A stretch of DNA of 64,000 nt from a virus (Duplodnaviria > Heunggongvirae > Uroviricota > Caudoviricetes), in the IMG/VR virus record IMGVR_UViG_2703718777_000015; one strand, written 5' to 3'. Under the pieces are notes generated by a model. It was given only the letters and a program-made list of their open reading frames with translations. It made no database searches and had not been told where the DNA came from. Below are positions 3,752 to 52,687 of this stretch, piece by piece (within the stretch, counting starts at the first letter, position 1; each line of letters begins with the position of its first letter). The translations under genes and the position numbers were made by a program.

Positions 3752-3768
3752 CAATACATTAGAGCAAT
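3752..3768 (-). promoter_or_regulatory. C1 repressor operator (15/17 match to ATTGCTCTAATAAATTT)
   Basis: Minus strand reads ATTGCTCTAATGTATTG upstream of the lpa-like gene. Confidence 0.6.
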
Positions 3769-33923: not shown

Positions 33924-34208
33924 GTGGCAAGTATTGCAACAAAAGACAGCATTTGTTCGGGGCACGGAGGATTCCCATCCAGGCCTCCCGTAGAGAGCGA
34001 ACCACTACTTAAAGTCAACGGAGTCGAAGTGTTAGTTGATGGTAAGCAATATGCACAGCATACCGATGGGAACAGCACGCACGGCGGGCAAGCTATATCA
34101 ACCAGGGCATGGTTTACCGTCAACAGGAAAGGGATCGTATGCGTTGGTGATCCTGTTTCATGCGGCTCTACCGTTGCAGCCGGAGACGGCCTGGTTCAGG
34201 TAAGTTAG
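33924..34208 (+). CDS. PAAR-like repeat protein (spike-tip candidate), GTG start
   Basis: 94 aa, Gly/Cys/His-rich (GHGG, THGG, GDPVSCGSTVAAGDG). Confidence 0.45.
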   Translation: MASIATKDSICSGHGGFPSRPPVESEPLLKVNGVEVLVDGKQYAQHTDGNSTHGGQAISTRAWFTVNRKGIVCVGDPVSCGSTVAAGDGLVQVS

Positions 34209-34216
34209 GAGATATC

Positions 34217-35005
34217 ATGCTGGAAAAAGACTACCAGTTATCCGCATATAAAAAATTGGCCGCCGCCGGTGGGATGAAAACACCTGGTGCCATAACATCG
34301 GCACGAAACAGTGCTAACACAGCAAAACTGTTTGCAGAAGAATTGACCGGATTAATTCTGGATACAATTGTCTATCCCGACACTATTACCAGCTATGTTT
34401 CAACGATCAGAACAACCGCAACCGGTTTAACGAATATTGGAGGGCTGGCAACTCAGCACGCGGACCTGTTGGCTGGTTATGCTGATCTGTCAATGCTCCT
34501 TCAACTCGATATTGGTTGGGATGTTTACTGTCGTGCTAATGAGCGAGAAGTTTCAGAACTGCCGATCTCTATTGCCATTGGTGATGTGACTATTACTAAA
34601 TCGCTTGAGGACGCTGTAAACGCGCTTAATACATCAAGTTTAGTCGCTGCTATGGGGGAGATTAACCAGACCCTTAACACTGGCTCAGGAAGCTCGTCAG
34701 GCTCTGGTTCAGGCGGCGGCACTGCCACTCCCCCACCAGCACTAACAGAAGAGCAAATTGAATCTCTGAAAGTAGCAACTGAACAGTTTGGGGTTGTTTT
34801 CAACCAGACAACAGCACCCACAACTGCGTTACAACAGCAGTATGAACGAGCGAATGAAAGCGCCAACGTAGCCATAACTGCTTATAACCATGCTATCGGT
34901 ACCGCGCTTGCGGAAGCATCAGCAAATAAGGCCAGCACAGCCAGCGCAGTCGCCGCTTTGGTTCCTGATTCTGTTCTTGATGAATTAAACAAAGCGGCAC
35001 GGTAA
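34217..35005 (+). CDS. hypothetical late protein with Gly/Ser linker
   Basis: AGGAGAT upstream of ATG; GSGSSSGSGSGGG linker. Confidence 0.55.
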   Translation: MLEKDYQLSAYKKLAAAGGMKTPGAITSARNSANTAKLFAEELTGLILDTIVYPDTITSYVSTIRTTATGLTNIGGLATQHADLLAGYADLSMLLQLDIGWDVYCRANEREVSELPISIAIGDVTITKSLEDAVNALNTSSLVAAMGEINQTLNTGSGSSSGSGSGGGTATPPPALTEEQIESLKVATEQFGVVFNQTTAPTTALQQQYERANESANVAITAYNHAIGTALAEASANKASTASAVAALVPDSVLDELNKAAR

Positions 35006-46457: not shown

Positions 46458-47054
46458 ATGGCTGTGATTCCAATGTCGTACTCCCCGGGTACTGTCGCTC
46501 GTCGATTTTCGATCCTGGACGGCGTTACCATCCAGGGTGTGCTTTACCAGGTTATATGGGATTCCAAAACCCCATTTGCAGCTGTAATAGAGGCTGCGCC
46601 TTCTGTTATCGATGGTGATATGCGGCATAAGGTTGTCGCTACTCTTGAACTTCAACGTCGCCCGCAGCTTGAAGGCGTACTTGTAAGGAAGTTCTGGGAG
46701 GATAGCGATGTTGCCCAGATTGAAGGTATCGTGGTTGATGGAATCGTCCGGGATGTCGGTTTAGCCACTTTTGTTTACGAAACCGTAGCCTCAAAAGCTG
46801 GTGTTGTTTTGCTCAGTGATAATGAGCAATACGAAGGTGGAAAAGCTCTTTGGCAACACATCGCCCGTCGCTCATCCGAGCTAAAAGTGTTTATCCTCGA
46901 CACCGATGCCGCTCAGTATTACCCGTTTGACGGCGAACGTGTTTGCTATGACGGGGTAAGTATTCCTGAATCCGAGATATGGAGTGAACACCCAGATCGA
47001 AGTAAGCATGGGGTTGTTCTGGTTGCTGAATCCATAACTGGAAAGGCGGCATAG
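46458..47054 (+). CDS. hypothetical protein (198 aa)
   Basis: AAGGGGG upstream of ATG. Confidence 0.5.
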   Translation: MAVIPMSYSPGTVARRFSILDGVTIQGVLYQVIWDSKTPFAAVIEAAPSVIDGDMRHKVVATLELQRRPQLEGVLVRKFWEDSDVAQIEGIVVDGIVRDVGLATFVYETVASKAGVVLLSDNEQYEGGKALWQHIARRSSELKVFILDTDAAQYYPFDGERVCYDGVSIPESEIWSEHPDRSKHGVVLVAESITGKAA

Positions 47055-47236
47055 CAGTAAAAAATTCCTTGCTCCTTGACAGAGGAGAGGATTAATCTAA
47101 GTACGCTAAGCATAGGTATGGCCCCGGTTAATGTTAAGCGTTGTGCGGGACGCATAATGTTTACTGGGGCTTTCTTCTATCTGCTTTTCGGGTAATACCT
47201 GAAGCTGATAGCCCCAAGCACACCGCAGCGGGTGTA

Positions 47237-49277: not shown

Positions 49278-49294
49278 AAATTTATTAGAGCAAA
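49278..49294 (-). promoter_or_regulatory. C1 repressor operator (16/17) controlling kilA-repL
   Basis: Minus strand TTTGCTCTAATAAATTT about 75 bp upstream of kilA. Confidence 0.7.
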
Positions 49295-49371: not shown

Positions 49372-50415
49372 TTAACCTATTGCTACTGGTTTTAACAAAC
49401 CAGCATCAAGTAGCTTGCGAGTTAACCACTGCTGGCCTTTACCCGTTAATTGGGGCGTCAGCCGTATCTGGTAGCCATTTTCATCATCCAGCACCACTTC
49501 TTTCACCGTGAAATACCCGGCGTTAATGTACTGCTGGCGCGGTACGTTTTTGCGCGCACCAAAAGCCATGAGAATGCCGTTCTGGCGCAACCATGAGAAA
49601 AGGGCGTTTTGCTTAAGTCCAACGACCTTTGCAAAGTTCCCGATCAGGATTCCATTAGCCACTGATACCCGGTCGGCAAAATCGACTTTAGGGGCTGCGG
49701 CCACCAGCTGTTGTTCCAGCTGCATTTTCTGTTCTGCCAACTCGGCAGCCAGGCGTAGAGCTTCTGGTAATGTTTGGGGGATCGATGGGGCAGGGGAGTT
49801 TGCCTGCTGCAATTCTTCCAGTTTGTCGATCAGCGAACGGCGGACCGCTTTCGATTCGCGAGCAGCAACGCGCAGGGCTTGTTTGTAGGTCATGGTTATG
49901 ACCTCAAAAGAGCGCCCAGCCCTTGTGCCATGGGATTTTACGAAAGTTTCGTAAAATTCCCCATCAAGTTCATCCTTAATTCTATTGAGAAAATCGTTAT
50001 TACGGATCTCATTTTCCCCACATAGCTTGCGCGCCTCATTAACCATCTTTAACAGCGTCTGGCTGTCGATTGTGTCTCCAGTGTTGGAGATAACATTCAC
50101 AGCTGGTGATGGCGTAGCTGAAGCAACAGATTCTGGTTTTTTAACATTCAAATTATTACTGGTCATTCTATGTGCCTCCTTTCTCATTTCTGCTGCCACC
50201 GTTGCGTAACGTAGACGTCCTTGTTCAATCAAATAATCCCTGATCTCGGCTATCAGTAGCTTGTTGATCACAGCCTTATCTGTTCGGGTATAAAAACGTC
50301 TGGTTATCATGAAATAGTTGGCAATTGTGCCGGGGATCTCCCGTGTCGGCATACAGATTGTATGCAAGGCGATCGCTTCGGCTATTTCATTACGGGTGAC
50401 GAGAGGTGTTTTCAT
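49372..50415 (-). CDS. antirepressor (Ant-like, C-terminal KilAC/Bro-C domain)
   Basis: 347 aa; C-terminal domain paralogous to KilA C-terminus; preceded by icd-like ORF and c4-like RNA. Confidence 0.7.
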   Translation of the reverse strand: MKTPLVTRNEIAEAIALHTICMPTREIPGTIANYFMITRRFYTRTDKAVINKLLIAEIRDYLIEQGRLRYATVAAEMRKEAHRMTSNNLNVKKPESVASATPSPAVNVISNTGDTIDSQTLLKMVNEARKLCGENEIRNNDFLNRIKDELDGEFYETFVKSHGTRAGRSFEVITMTYKQALRVAARESKAVRRSLIDKLEELQQANSPAPSIPQTLPEALRLAAELAEQKMQLEQQLVAAAPKVDFADRVSVANGILIGNFAKVVGLKQNALFSWLRQNGILMAFGARKNVPRQQYINAGYFTVKEVVLDDENGYQIRLTPQLTGKGQQWLTRKLLDAGLLKPVAIG

Positions 50416-50633
50416 AACCCCCCCTGAACGTCGGCAGAGAAGGGGAGGTTCCAGTAACTAAGTGAATTGCGCGAGTTAGTAGAAAAACGGGCAGTAAAAA
50501 TGCAGGGACCATCAGGCAATTGAGAGCGTGCTTCGTCTTCAGTTGCTGCGATAACGAAGTGATAGTGGTGTTTTTTACAGGAATAGAAACGCCAGATGAA
50601 TTCTGGGCGTGCGCAAGGATTGGCATTAACCAT
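50412..50633 (-). CDS. icd: Icd-like small protein overlapping the antirepressor start
   Basis: 73 aa; ATGA overlap with ant; RBS embedded in antisense target a2. Confidence 0.55.
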   Translation of the reverse strand: MVNANPCARPEFIWRFYSCKKHHYHFVIAATEDEARSQLPDGPCIFTARFSTNSRNSLSYWNLPFSADVQGGL

Positions 50634-50689
50634 AGTTACGGCCTCACAATCAGGTTTAACAACCTGCTACCCGCTGTCAAACAGGTGGC

Positions 50690-50768
50690 AGGACGTGACA
50701 GGGTTGACAGACTGGCGATTGTGAAACCAGCAGGCCGAAGCCTCCCCATCACGCCCCACCATAATTTG
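50690..50768 (-). ncRNA. c4: c4-type antisense repressor RNA (boundaries approximate)
   Basis: Transcript carries a' CACAATC and b' CTGTCAAC, complementary to GATTGTG / GTTTGACAG copies upstream (50829-50851) and at the icd RBS (50645-50681). Confidence 0.55.
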
Positions 50769-50947
50769 GGCGTAACGCGGTTTAACGGACACAAAAATAC
50801 CGCAATATCGGAAATCTGCGGTTGTCCGCACAATCATTCAGGCTGTCAAACCTGGTCGCAGAATTTGCTACGACGGCAGAACTATAAGCCTGAACGATTA
50901 AAAGGTCAATATGATGCGAAAAGATAGCATTCGTGACTTAAAAATAC

Positions 50948-50964
50948 AAATTTATTAGAGCATT
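50948..50964 (-). promoter_or_regulatory. C1 repressor operator (16/17) heading the c4-icd-ant immunity operon
   Basis: Minus strand AATGCTCTAATAAATTT. Confidence 0.65.
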
Positions 50965-51060: not shown

Positions 51061-51699
51061 ATGAGAAAACTATTACTACCGTTATTATTTATGGCTGGGA
51101 CTGTTAATGCTGCATCAAGTGTAAAGGAGATTTGTACCGACTACACGAAATACCTTGGGCACGTTTACGGTTTCACTGTCAGTCAAGACGGCAAGATGAA
51201 AAAAGCTCTCCAGAATGATATGACGCGCTTAAGTTTGTCTGAAGCAATGGTTCAGCAAGAAATGTATAAGGTTGCGACAGATGATGCTGCAAAAATGTAT
51301 TATTCGAAATTTCTTAATCCTAATCTTAATGAATATAACCGTTCGGCTTTTAATCAGATGGTAGCGTATTGTGAAACTGCACCAGATATGATGATTCCTA
51401 GTTGGGCTGTATTAGTGGCTAATGGAAAAATTCGCAAAGAAGACCAAGGAAAATCTTTAAGTAGCTATATAAATAGCGAACAATTTCTGAATGCGCGTGG
51501 CATGCGCACTCAAAATACTCAAGGTGCGCTTGAGCGGAGGGCTTTAGGGACCGTTGATGCAAATGATACTGATAATTTGCCCCCTGGAATAAAAAAATGT
51601 GTTGAAACTAAGTTAACTCTGATGAAGCGGGACAGCCCTAACATTCCTGTTTCACAACTTACCGCTACGGCAACTAGTCTCTGCAAAGACGGGCTTTAA
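51061..51699 (+). CDS. secreted hypothetical protein (signal peptide), AT-rich island gene 1
   Basis: MRKLLLPLLFMAGTVNAASS signal peptide; visibly AT-rich codons. Confidence 0.6.
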   Translation: MRKLLLPLLFMAGTVNAASSVKEICTDYTKYLGHVYGFTVSQDGKMKKALQNDMTRLSLSEAMVQQEMYKVATDDAAKMYYSKFLNPNLNEYNRSAFNQMVAYCETAPDMMIPSWAVLVANGKIRKEDQGKSLSSYINSEQFLNARGMRTQNTQGALERRALGTVDANDTDNLPPGIKKCVETKLTLMKRDSPNIPVSQLTATATSLCKDGL

Positions 51700-51763
51700 A
51701 TGTAAAGATATTCGAAGAAATGTTATTTTAAGGCGTTTTATCTGTGACTGGAGATAGTTAATC

Positions 51764-52114
51764 ATGTCATCTGAACATGTTCGTAAAGGTGTAACAAATG
51801 CGAAATTCAATGAAGAGCAATCTAATATTCTCTTTATTGAAATAGGAATTCTGTCAATACTGATAGGTTTAATGTCTAAATCATGGTGGGCCTTTGGCGG
51901 TTCTTTTCTTGGACTGATTTTTAGTTTAAGAATAAAATTTCTGGCAATACCATTGATGATTGTCTTTAGCTTAGTATGGGGAGCTATTGGCTATAGTATT
52001 GGTACTTTGTTTGAATCAACAGCAGCAAGTATTGTTTTGGGGGTAATTGCTTTCCTGAGTGGCTTGGGTACTCATTTTGCTGCCGTGCAATGGGCAAATG
52101 ATATTGCAGAATAA
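51764..52114 (+). CDS. small integral membrane protein (3 TM), island gene 2
   Basis: Three hydrophobic helices. Confidence 0.6.
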   Translation: MSSEHVRKGVTNAKFNEEQSNILFIEIGILSILIGLMSKSWWAFGGSFLGLIFSLRIKFLAIPLMIVFSLVWGAIGYSIGTLFESTAASIVLGVIAFLSGLGTHFAAVQWANDIAE

Positions 52115-52136
52115 TTACAGATAAGAAGCGAAAAGA

Positions 52137-52613
52137 ATGAATATGAGATGGTTTTTATTATTTGTATCGTTAGTTTCAGCAGGATCATTTGCAAAAATTG
52201 ATCCTCTACAATGGAATGTAATTGAAGAGAGAGGGGGAAGAGAATATACAATCCATAATCATAATGGTGATAAGATAAGTTTTTTATGTGATATGGGATT
52301 CATGTATGGTTCACCAGATAGTGCAGGTAGTTTAGGCTTGTTGCTAAGTTCGTCGAATAATAAAAAGGAGTATAATGCTGACAAGAATAAAATAGTATTA
52401 ACTATAGATGGTGAGCAATATCCTTTTAGCAATCTTGGGTCAATGGTTGGAGATTCTTGGTGGTATGCCTTTTGGCAAGATGCAGCAGATTCAAATGCTA
52501 ATATGATTGATGCTTATGTTGACAATGAAAAAATTGCTACATTCCCTCTTTCTGGGCTAAGTAAGTTGTATCAACAAGCCAAAATGGATGGATGTATTAA
52601 ACGAGGCAAATGA
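52137..52613 (+). CDS. secreted hypothetical protein (signal peptide), island gene 3
   Basis: MNMRWFLLFVSLVSAGSFA signal peptide. Confidence 0.6.
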   Translation: MNMRWFLLFVSLVSAGSFAKIDPLQWNVIEERGGREYTIHNHNGDKISFLCDMGFMYGSPDSAGSLGLLLSSSNNKKEYNADKNKIVLTIDGEQYPFSNLGSMVGDSWWYAFWQDAADSNANMIDAYVDNEKIATFPLSGLSKLYQQAKMDGCIKRGK

Positions 52614-52687
52614 TCTTTCTGTGTTAAAGACTAACGCAACCAATAAAACATTGGTTGCGTAATATTCTATTATATAGATGGAATAAT

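Follow-up and report, generated by a model that had tools for sequence, protein, structure and literature searches.

The window analyzed here is a 64,000-nucleotide stretch of viral DNA from IMG/VR, and its minus strand carries a segment that is 96.6% identical to the immI region of phage P1 over 801 nt and 96.1% identical to that of P7. Features were transferred by aligning the window with the annotated P1 record NC_005856 and with P7 (NC_050152). Every annotated P1 feature maps to the window, including Oc4/Op51, P2c4, P1c4, a1, b1, the 77-nt c4, a2, b2, and icd. The features of the locus are listed below.

50948-50964, minus strand: C1 repressor operator (P1 Oc4 / Op51), AATGCTCTAATAAATTT, the same as the annotated P1 operator after alignment
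50921-50950, minus strand: upstream C1-controlled promoter (P1 P2c4 = P51a), -35 at 50944-50950 and -10 at 50921-50926, hexamers equal to those of P1 NC_005856
50881-50909, minus strand: constitutive operon promoter (P1 P1c4 = P51b), -35 TTGACC at 50904-50909 and -10 TATAGT at 50881-50886, the same in P1 and P7
50793-50874, minus strand: leader RNA containing a1 and b1, made of two hairpins, a linker, a hairpin ACCGCA/UGCGGU (50799-50822), and a U-run (50793-50797)
50843-50849, minus strand: a1 target UUGACAG (P1-type), in the loop of the second leader hairpin
50829-50835, minus strand: b1 target GAUUGUG (P7-type), in the leader linker
50684-50760, minus strand: mature C4 antisense RNA, 77 nt, size by homology with P1 (Rfam match 50681-50766)
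50717-50723, minus strand: b' motif CACAAUC, in the 9-nt loop of the second C4 hairpin, unpaired in the minimum free energy (MFE) and centroid structures
50704-50710, minus strand: a' motif CUGUCAA, exactly the 7-nt single-stranded C4 junction, unpaired in the MFE and centroid structures
50674-50680, minus strand: a2 target UUGACAG, placed by alignment with P1 and pattern search
50642-50651, minus strand: b2 target GAUUGUG (50645-50651) that continues into the icd Shine-Dalgarno sequence, GAUUGUGAGG, 8 nt ahead of the icd ATG
50412-50633, minus strand: icd, 73 aa, matching Icd of both P1 and P7 at 72 of 73 residues
49372-50415, minus strand: ant1, antirepressor, 347 aa, 92.5% identical to P1 Ant1, with a Pfam ANT/KilAC domain (1e-30)

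The antisense RNA and its target both lie downstream of the same promoter, with the C1 operator upstream, and at the sequence level the hexamers and Op51 are those of P1. The P1c4 promoter was recovered independently by a promoter scan, with 10 of 12 matches. The window contains 10 operator-like 17-mers, Oc4/Op51 among them, where 0.4 would be expected. These 17-mers start at positions 3752, 14830, 16923, 16972, 20596, 30539, 30550, 33826, 49278, and 50948; the one at 49278-49294, before kilA, is Op53-like, and two at 30539-30566 overlap as an inverted pair. Downstream of the control region, the icd stop codon overlaps the ant1 start codon (ATGA), and kilA and repL follow ant1; in the Pfam search, no model exists for either Icd or RepL.

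An E. coli plasmid matches 24 kb of the window at 97.8% identity, and 575 plasmids in PLSDB contain the control region, nearly all of them non-mobilizable and from Escherichia or Salmonella, which indicates that the window is part of a P1-like phage-plasmid. Host range is taken here from the PLSDB counts, as species-representative genomes gave two loci only. It is very probable that the segment represents the immI operon control region of a P1-like phage-plasmid of Escherichia.

The first-pass annotation, which was made from the sequence alone, had proposed a c4-type antisense switch on the basis of short repeats and their complements. A pattern search that read both strands recovers these elements. 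GATTGTG occurs twice on the minus-strand transcript, at 50829-50835 and 50645-50651, and GTTTGACAG likewise occurs twice on the minus strand, at 50843-50851 and 50674-50682. The second GATTGTG copy runs on as GATTGTGAGG (50651-50642), 8 nt ahead of the icd ATG at 50633. The intervening segment holds CACAATC and CTGTCAA (plus-strand 50717-50723 and 50704-50710) where the annotation had placed them. Its description of both as exact complements of the repeats needs a correction at one of the two sites: CACAATC is fully complementary to GATTGTG, whereas complementarity at the a site extends over 7 nt only (CUGUCAA with UUGACAG) and not over 8-9, as CTGTCAAC is complementary to GTTGACAG and not to GTTTGACAG.

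Taken singly, the two 7-mers occur at chance level in the window (9 found where 10.9 are expected, and 11 where 9.0 are). The 9-mer GTTTGACAG is found three times against 0.54 expected, a count reached in none of 100 shuffles. The ordered pair of TTGACAG followed within 40 nt by GATTGTG also occurs three times, always at the c4 locus, where 300 block shuffles give an expectation of 0.02, and the full six-site architecture is present once in the window.

Two Rfam models match at this position above their curated cut-offs when the whole window is scanned. The C4 antisense RNA family (RF01695) matches 50681-50766 on the minus strand over its full length (1-87) with 68.4 bits against a cut-off of 45, and the family described as the a1 and b1 targets of C4 (RF03163) matches 50835-50887 on the minus strand with 55.5 bits against 46.7. 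Together with the mapped P1 immI features, these matches bear out the proposed c4-type architecture. Folding, which the first-pass annotation had suggested alongside the covariance-model search, gives a stable 77-nt RNA with an MFE of -42.0 kcal/mol, compared with a shuffle mean of -27.3 (z -4.58; none of 200 shuffles folds as well). The predicted structure consists of a 17-bp closing stem, a hairpin capped by UUCG, a second hairpin with b' in its 9-nt loop, the junction formed by a', and a 3-nt 3' tail, ACC; both a' and b' are left unpaired. The pairing of a' and b' with a2 and b2, on which the proposed switch depends, is predicted at -10.2 kcal/mol for the C4 loop with GAUUGUGAGG at b2, over the Shine-Dalgarno sequence, and at -7.3 kcal/mol for the C4 junction with a2. 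By every feature testable here, the window RNA is a member of the C4 family. The assignment to the P1 family, which had been said to hold independently of protein similarity, does so on the RNA models, the 96.6% nucleotide identity, the mapped features, and the fold.

The leader that precedes C4 resembles another RNA family, IsrK. Under permissive thresholds, Rfam isrK (RF01394) matches 50874-50793 over the whole model (1-77) with an E value of 3e-8 and a score of 43 bits, below the gathering threshold of 50, and the leader is therefore likened to IsrK rather than assigned as a member. The match begins 7 nt past the -10 hexamer and ends in a hairpin followed by five U residues. This terminal hairpin, ACCGCA/UGCGGU, is 95% paired in 41 relatives, with little variation by which to test the pairing. 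It was not called by the terminator scan because of its 12-nt loop. Short IsrK has been reported by Hershko-Shalev et al. to end at its own terminator and to activate translation of a downstream antirepressor in trans (PMC4825925). By homology, the window leader might be set free as a short RNA and compete for C4. The likeness itself is not new, since Barquist et al. had already stated the family relationship between IsrK/seqA and C4/CI, including P1, P7, and N15 (PMC3632133).

A long-range helix in the MFE fold of the whole 255-nt leader is not claimed here, as it exhibits no covariation beyond that of shuffles. In this helix, 50839-50854 would pair with 50652-50667 on the minus strand, joining the a1 hairpin over 16 bp to a hairpin between a2 and b2. 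In relatives its pairing stands at 94.9%, with the 3' half broken in the ACTTGTG and ACTTACG allele groups, and both a1 alleles (GA and AG) are able to pair with the same UU.

Conservation of the pairing was surveyed using 143 loci from three exact-core scans of IMG/VR viral contigs, together with named phages, two genomes, and the window; 147 parsable c4 loci were counted and 41 distinct sequences were aligned. Both motifs have exact 7-nt complements at the upstream and downstream sites in 146 of the 147 loci. Across the 41 sequences, the a1:a' and b1:b' helices are paired in 100% of 574 cells, with 8 of 14 pairs changed on both sides, compared with 26-39% pairing in slid controls, in which the partner was moved by 1-3 columns. 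The corresponding values for b':b2 and a':a2 are 99.8% of cells, 8 of 14 pairs, and 27-52% in the slid controls. Considered helix by helix, b1:b' has 6 of 7 pairs changed on both sides and every cell paired, a1:a' is likewise fully paired with variation on both sides, b':b2 has 99.7% of cells paired and covariation in 6 of 7 pairs, and a':a2 is 100% paired. The surveyed loci are closely related, with a mean column identity of 90%, and concordant cells cannot be counted as separate events; what is independent as evidence is the set of seven b alleles and two a alleles. This covariation places the pairing beyond chance, and that of a1/b1 is kept as strictly as that of the functional a2/b2. The scheme that had been read from one sequence is the one that evolution has kept.

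Two apparent exceptions to the matching rule were found. Phage 673R5 (L085, 535-770) has a 2-nt insertion inside b1. The other locus, L133 (4691-4926, minus strand), places a P1-type b2 beside a b' (CAUUCGU) and b1 of the 673R5 type. Because it lies at a contig end, and a P1-b module is present elsewhere in the same genome, its mismatch is probably an assembly join.

These data bear on two other readings of the locus. The 7-mer repeats might be chance occurrences, or the remnant of a duplication, that have no pairing function, and their individual frequencies in the window would indeed suit chance. The ordered architecture, however, is present once where about 0.02 is expected for even one a-b pair, matched triplets accompany each of the 12 allele combinations found in the survey, and covariation as reverse complements would not arise from a duplication remnant. 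This explanation was rejected on the allele survey and the covariation at both target sets, and its probability is negligible. Hardly more credible is the idea that the region encodes a small protein repressor, which was the assumption for c4 before 1990. Minus-strand open reading frames of 56 aa (50667-50837) and 65 aa (50636-50833) do lie over c4, and database records contain a coding sequence there, which the JL22 and phi456 phage records call a hypothetical protein. Yet substitutions at the variable positions within c4 are matched by substitutions at non-coding sites roughly 110 nt upstream and 40-70 nt downstream, so that Watson-Crick pairing is kept, which points to constraint at the RNA level; the covariance-model match and the strongly stabilized fold also speak against a protein. 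Moreover, c4 reportedly acts as an RNA, a finding attributed to Citron and Schuster in 1990. The 56-aa frame is annotated at 427-597 in L086 and at 426-596 in L088 (the JL22 and phi456 records), where c4 is unannotated, and this hypothetical protein is probably a mis-annotation.

With an RNA-level switch as the preferred reading, the recognition motifs of the window can be compared with those of the classical phages, which differ from each other by two bases in each motif.

P1 alleles: a TTGACAG / a' CUGUCAA; b GTTAGTG / b' CACUAAC
P7 alleles: a TTAGCAG / a' CUGCUAA; b GATTGTG / b' CACAAUC
Window alleles: a TTGACAG / a' CUGUCAA (P1 type); b GATTGTG / b' CACAAUC (P7 type)

The window combines the P1 a allele with the P7 b allele, and does so in all three copies. 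It does not fall into the P1 immI specificity class, in which its a allele fits while b1, b', and b2 are the P7 allele, nor into the P7 class, in which its b allele fits while a1, a', and a2 are the P1 allele. The window c4 differs from P1 c4 in b' only, with flanks and both ends the same as in P1, and polymorphisms flanking the locus are mosaic as well. Since the elements are arranged along the transcript in the order a1, b1, b', a', a2, b2, conversion of a P1 type to the window type by recombination with P7 would need three closely spaced exchanges.

The 147 surveyed loci contain two a' and seven b' alleles, and 12 of the 14 possible combinations occur. The b' alleles are CACAAUC, CACUAAC, CGUAAGU (SJ46, D6), CAUGUAC, CAUUCGU (673R5), CACAAGU, and CUUGAAC. 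The b alleles are pairwise at least 2 nt apart, with predicted duplexes of about -10 kcal/mol for cognate pairs and -7.0 or weaker for non-cognate pairs, and both motifs are unpaired in the predicted fold for every allele combination. The combination seen in the window is found in 15 of the 147 loci, including the isolated phage JL22 and Escherichia sp. MOD1-EC7003, and it is frequent among E. coli plasmids. The allele combination is new and the system is known. No description of mosaic or further c4 alleles was found in the full-text literature that could be searched, and an earlier description in the primary P1 papers or the D6/plasmid-prophage survey (Gilcrease & Casjens 2018) is possible. 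In 13 related genomes or contigs with two to four c4-icd modules, one of them a 97-kb IMG/VR contig (L029, L058, L123, and L150), each module has another a/b combination.

The proposed mechanism follows that of P1. One minus-strand transcript would start at about 50874 from the constitutive promoter, with the C1-repressible promoter upstream, and would carry, in order, the leader with a1 and b1, the 77-nt C4, a2 and b2, icd, and ant1/ant2. C4 would be excised from this transcript as a long stem with two hairpins, the 5' cut being made in P1 by RNase P, and in the folded RNA a loop would present b' (CACAAUC) and the junction a' (CUGUCAA). In P1 and P7, processing of C4 to a stable 77-nt RNA with a 5' end generated by RNase P is known. 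Pairing of C4 with a2 and b2 would block translation of icd, because b2 runs into the icd Shine-Dalgarno sequence. As ant expression depends on icd translation, no antirepressor would be made, and the C1 repressor would hold the prophage quiescent. A block of icd translation is also said, in work by Biere et al. in 1992 and Heinrich et al. in 1994, to terminate transcription before ant. Published work on the system indicates that C1 represses the upstream promoter and that full repression of ant requires C4 (PMC8198154), that C4 binding around the ribosome-binding site underlies P1/P7 heteroimmunity (PMC12197685), and that RNase P acts on the C4 precursor (PMC11143913). At the window locus, sequence and computation show which elements are present and in what order, how C4 folds, that motifs and targets are complementary and covary, and that b2 overlaps the icd ribosome-binding site and icd overlaps ant, while processing to 77 nt, repression of icd, and immI immunity would carry over from P1 and P7.

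Because the code combines the P1 a allele with the P7 b allele, the immI specificity of the window is predicted to be neither fully that of P1 nor fully that of P7. Predicted duplex energies for the relevant combinations are as follows.

Window C4 on window targets (cognate): b -10.2, a -7.3 kcal/mol
Window C4 on P1 targets: b -5.2, a -7.3 kcal/mol
Window C4 on P7 targets: b -10.2, a -2.8 kcal/mol
P1 C4 on P7 targets (known heteroimmune): b -4.9, a -2.8 kcal/mol

Whether the window element has a truly separate specificity is judged to be about evenly balanced. The main rival is cross-immunity, in which the same c4 switch operates and the mosaic is without consequence: one matched site would be enough, and the element would be cross-immune at immI with P1 (via a), with P7 (via b), or with both. 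This is a serious though somewhat improbable alternative. One site is fully complementary to each classical phage, and the summed duplexes against P1 or P7 targets, approximately -12.5 to -13.0 kcal/mol, lie between the cognate value of -17.5 and the heteroimmune P1-versus-P7 value of -7.7. Several observations argue against cross-immunity. Both sites are perfectly matched in 146 of 147 loci, which would be unexpected were one of them dispensable, and all alleles are at least 2 nt apart. In addition, none of the 31 module pairs in the 13 genomes or contigs with two to four c4 modules is alike at both alleles; two co-resident pairs differ in a only and several in b only, which fits a functional difference at a single site. 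This evidence from module pairs is suggestive only, as module type is also tied to genome position.

A broader proposal is offered tentatively and at somewhat less than even likelihood. The c4 system would constitute a combinatorial two-site RNA code in which at least two a and seven b alleles are freely reassorted, giving at least 12 lock-and-key combinations matched at three places. The window would then be heteroimmune to both P1 and P7, up to four orthogonal c4-icd-ant modules could be present in one element, and the IsrK-like leader would act as a cognate decoy and determine the threshold at which the antirepressor is released.

Among known systems, P1 immI (NC_005856) is like the window in its operator and promoters and in how its elements are ordered and spaced. 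Its C4 scaffold departs from that of the window in b' only, the a allele is the same, and Icd and Ant1 are 98.6% and 92.5% identical, respectively. P1 differs in having b alleles GTTAGTG / CACUAAC where the window has GATTGTG / CACAAUC in all three copies, and in its simABC genes, in place of which the window has different cargo beside the control region. The P7 immI c4 (NC_050152) agrees with the window in architecture and in the b allele (GATTGTG / CACAAUC), but differs in the a allele (TTAGCAG / CUGCUAA), in several flanking polymorphisms that are P1-like in the window, and in Ant1, which is only 88.8% identical. Another relative is Escherichia phage JL22 (ON018986.2), which has the same a/b combination and a 251-nt control region 99.6% identical to that of the window; unlike the locus described here, its record leaves c4 without annotation and places a 56-aa hypothetical protein over it. 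Among the 575 PLSDB plasmids, 44 have a control region at least 99% identical to that of the window, with the same a/b combination.

A more distant parallel is the isrK - STnc1160/'orf45' - anrP region of Salmonella prophage Gifsy-1 (PMC4825925; named the 'IsrK-C4 immunity system' in PMC3632133). Its layout corresponds to that of the window, with IsrK (a1/b1) followed by C4, then a2/b2 over the ribosome-binding site, and then the antirepressor. The Rfam models isrK, c4-a1b1, and C4 all match Gifsy-1 above their cut-offs and in the same order, in tandem on the minus strand of NC_010392 (L156) at 34076-34329, and the window leader fits the isrK model end to end, although its score lies below the gathering threshold that the Gifsy-1 sequence exceeds. 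Gifsy-1 also differs from the window in its low sequence identity, its motifs (UUGGCG / UCACCG), and its lack of icd. The published model for Gifsy-1 invokes alternative mRNA structures rather than C4 antisense control. In the published numbering of PMC4825925, the compensatory mutants G28A/C162U and G31A/C159U are exactly a1:a' pairs. The AUG codons of 'orf45' (A107, U120) lie inside the C4 RNA, with a2 and then b2 plus GGAGG just ahead of the anrP AUG. The Gifsy-1 data may therefore be re-readable as C4 antisense control with IsrK as a decoy.

The CI RNA of phage P4, with seqA/seqC, and the CB RNA of N15 are built on a similar plan. Both are processed small RNAs that lie between upstream and downstream complementary sites on the same transcript and control anti-immunity or replication genes. 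P4 CI differs in acting mainly through premature transcription termination, and its downstream genes are others. The family relationship of these RNAs is described in PMC3632133.

Several further features of the window lie outside the c4 switch. The stretch 51170-53822, which separates the c4 control region from the LPsit/pmgC region, represents a third cargo variant, with plus-strand open reading frames of 221, 116, 158, and 355 aa. This segment has no similarity to P1 simABC or to P7 upf50.0/50.5, and its first open reading frame has no Pfam match. The Rfam model for sok, the antitoxin of hok/sok, matches 47050-47223 on the minus strand downstream of repL, with 62.3 bits against a threshold of 59; no obvious Hok-like frame was seen in the list of open reading frames for the window. 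Three tRNA genes are located on the minus strand at 28135-28206, 29734-29806, and 29812-29884, as in P1-family genomes.

None of these results changes the known mechanism, and the system itself will be unsurprising to specialists; of mild interest are the combinatorial allele grid and how strictly a1/b1 is kept. For annotation, the 56-aa hypothetical protein in related phage records is in all probability the c4 RNA gene. The poorly understood a1/b1 copy is under a pairing constraint equal to that on the functional a2/b2. The alleles surveyed amount to a natural collection of short RNA-RNA recognition pairs that share one scaffold and appear to be orthogonal. In E. coli and Salmonella, P1-like phage-plasmids commonly carry resistance genes, and the a/b combination is predicted to indicate which of them can superinfect or co-reside.
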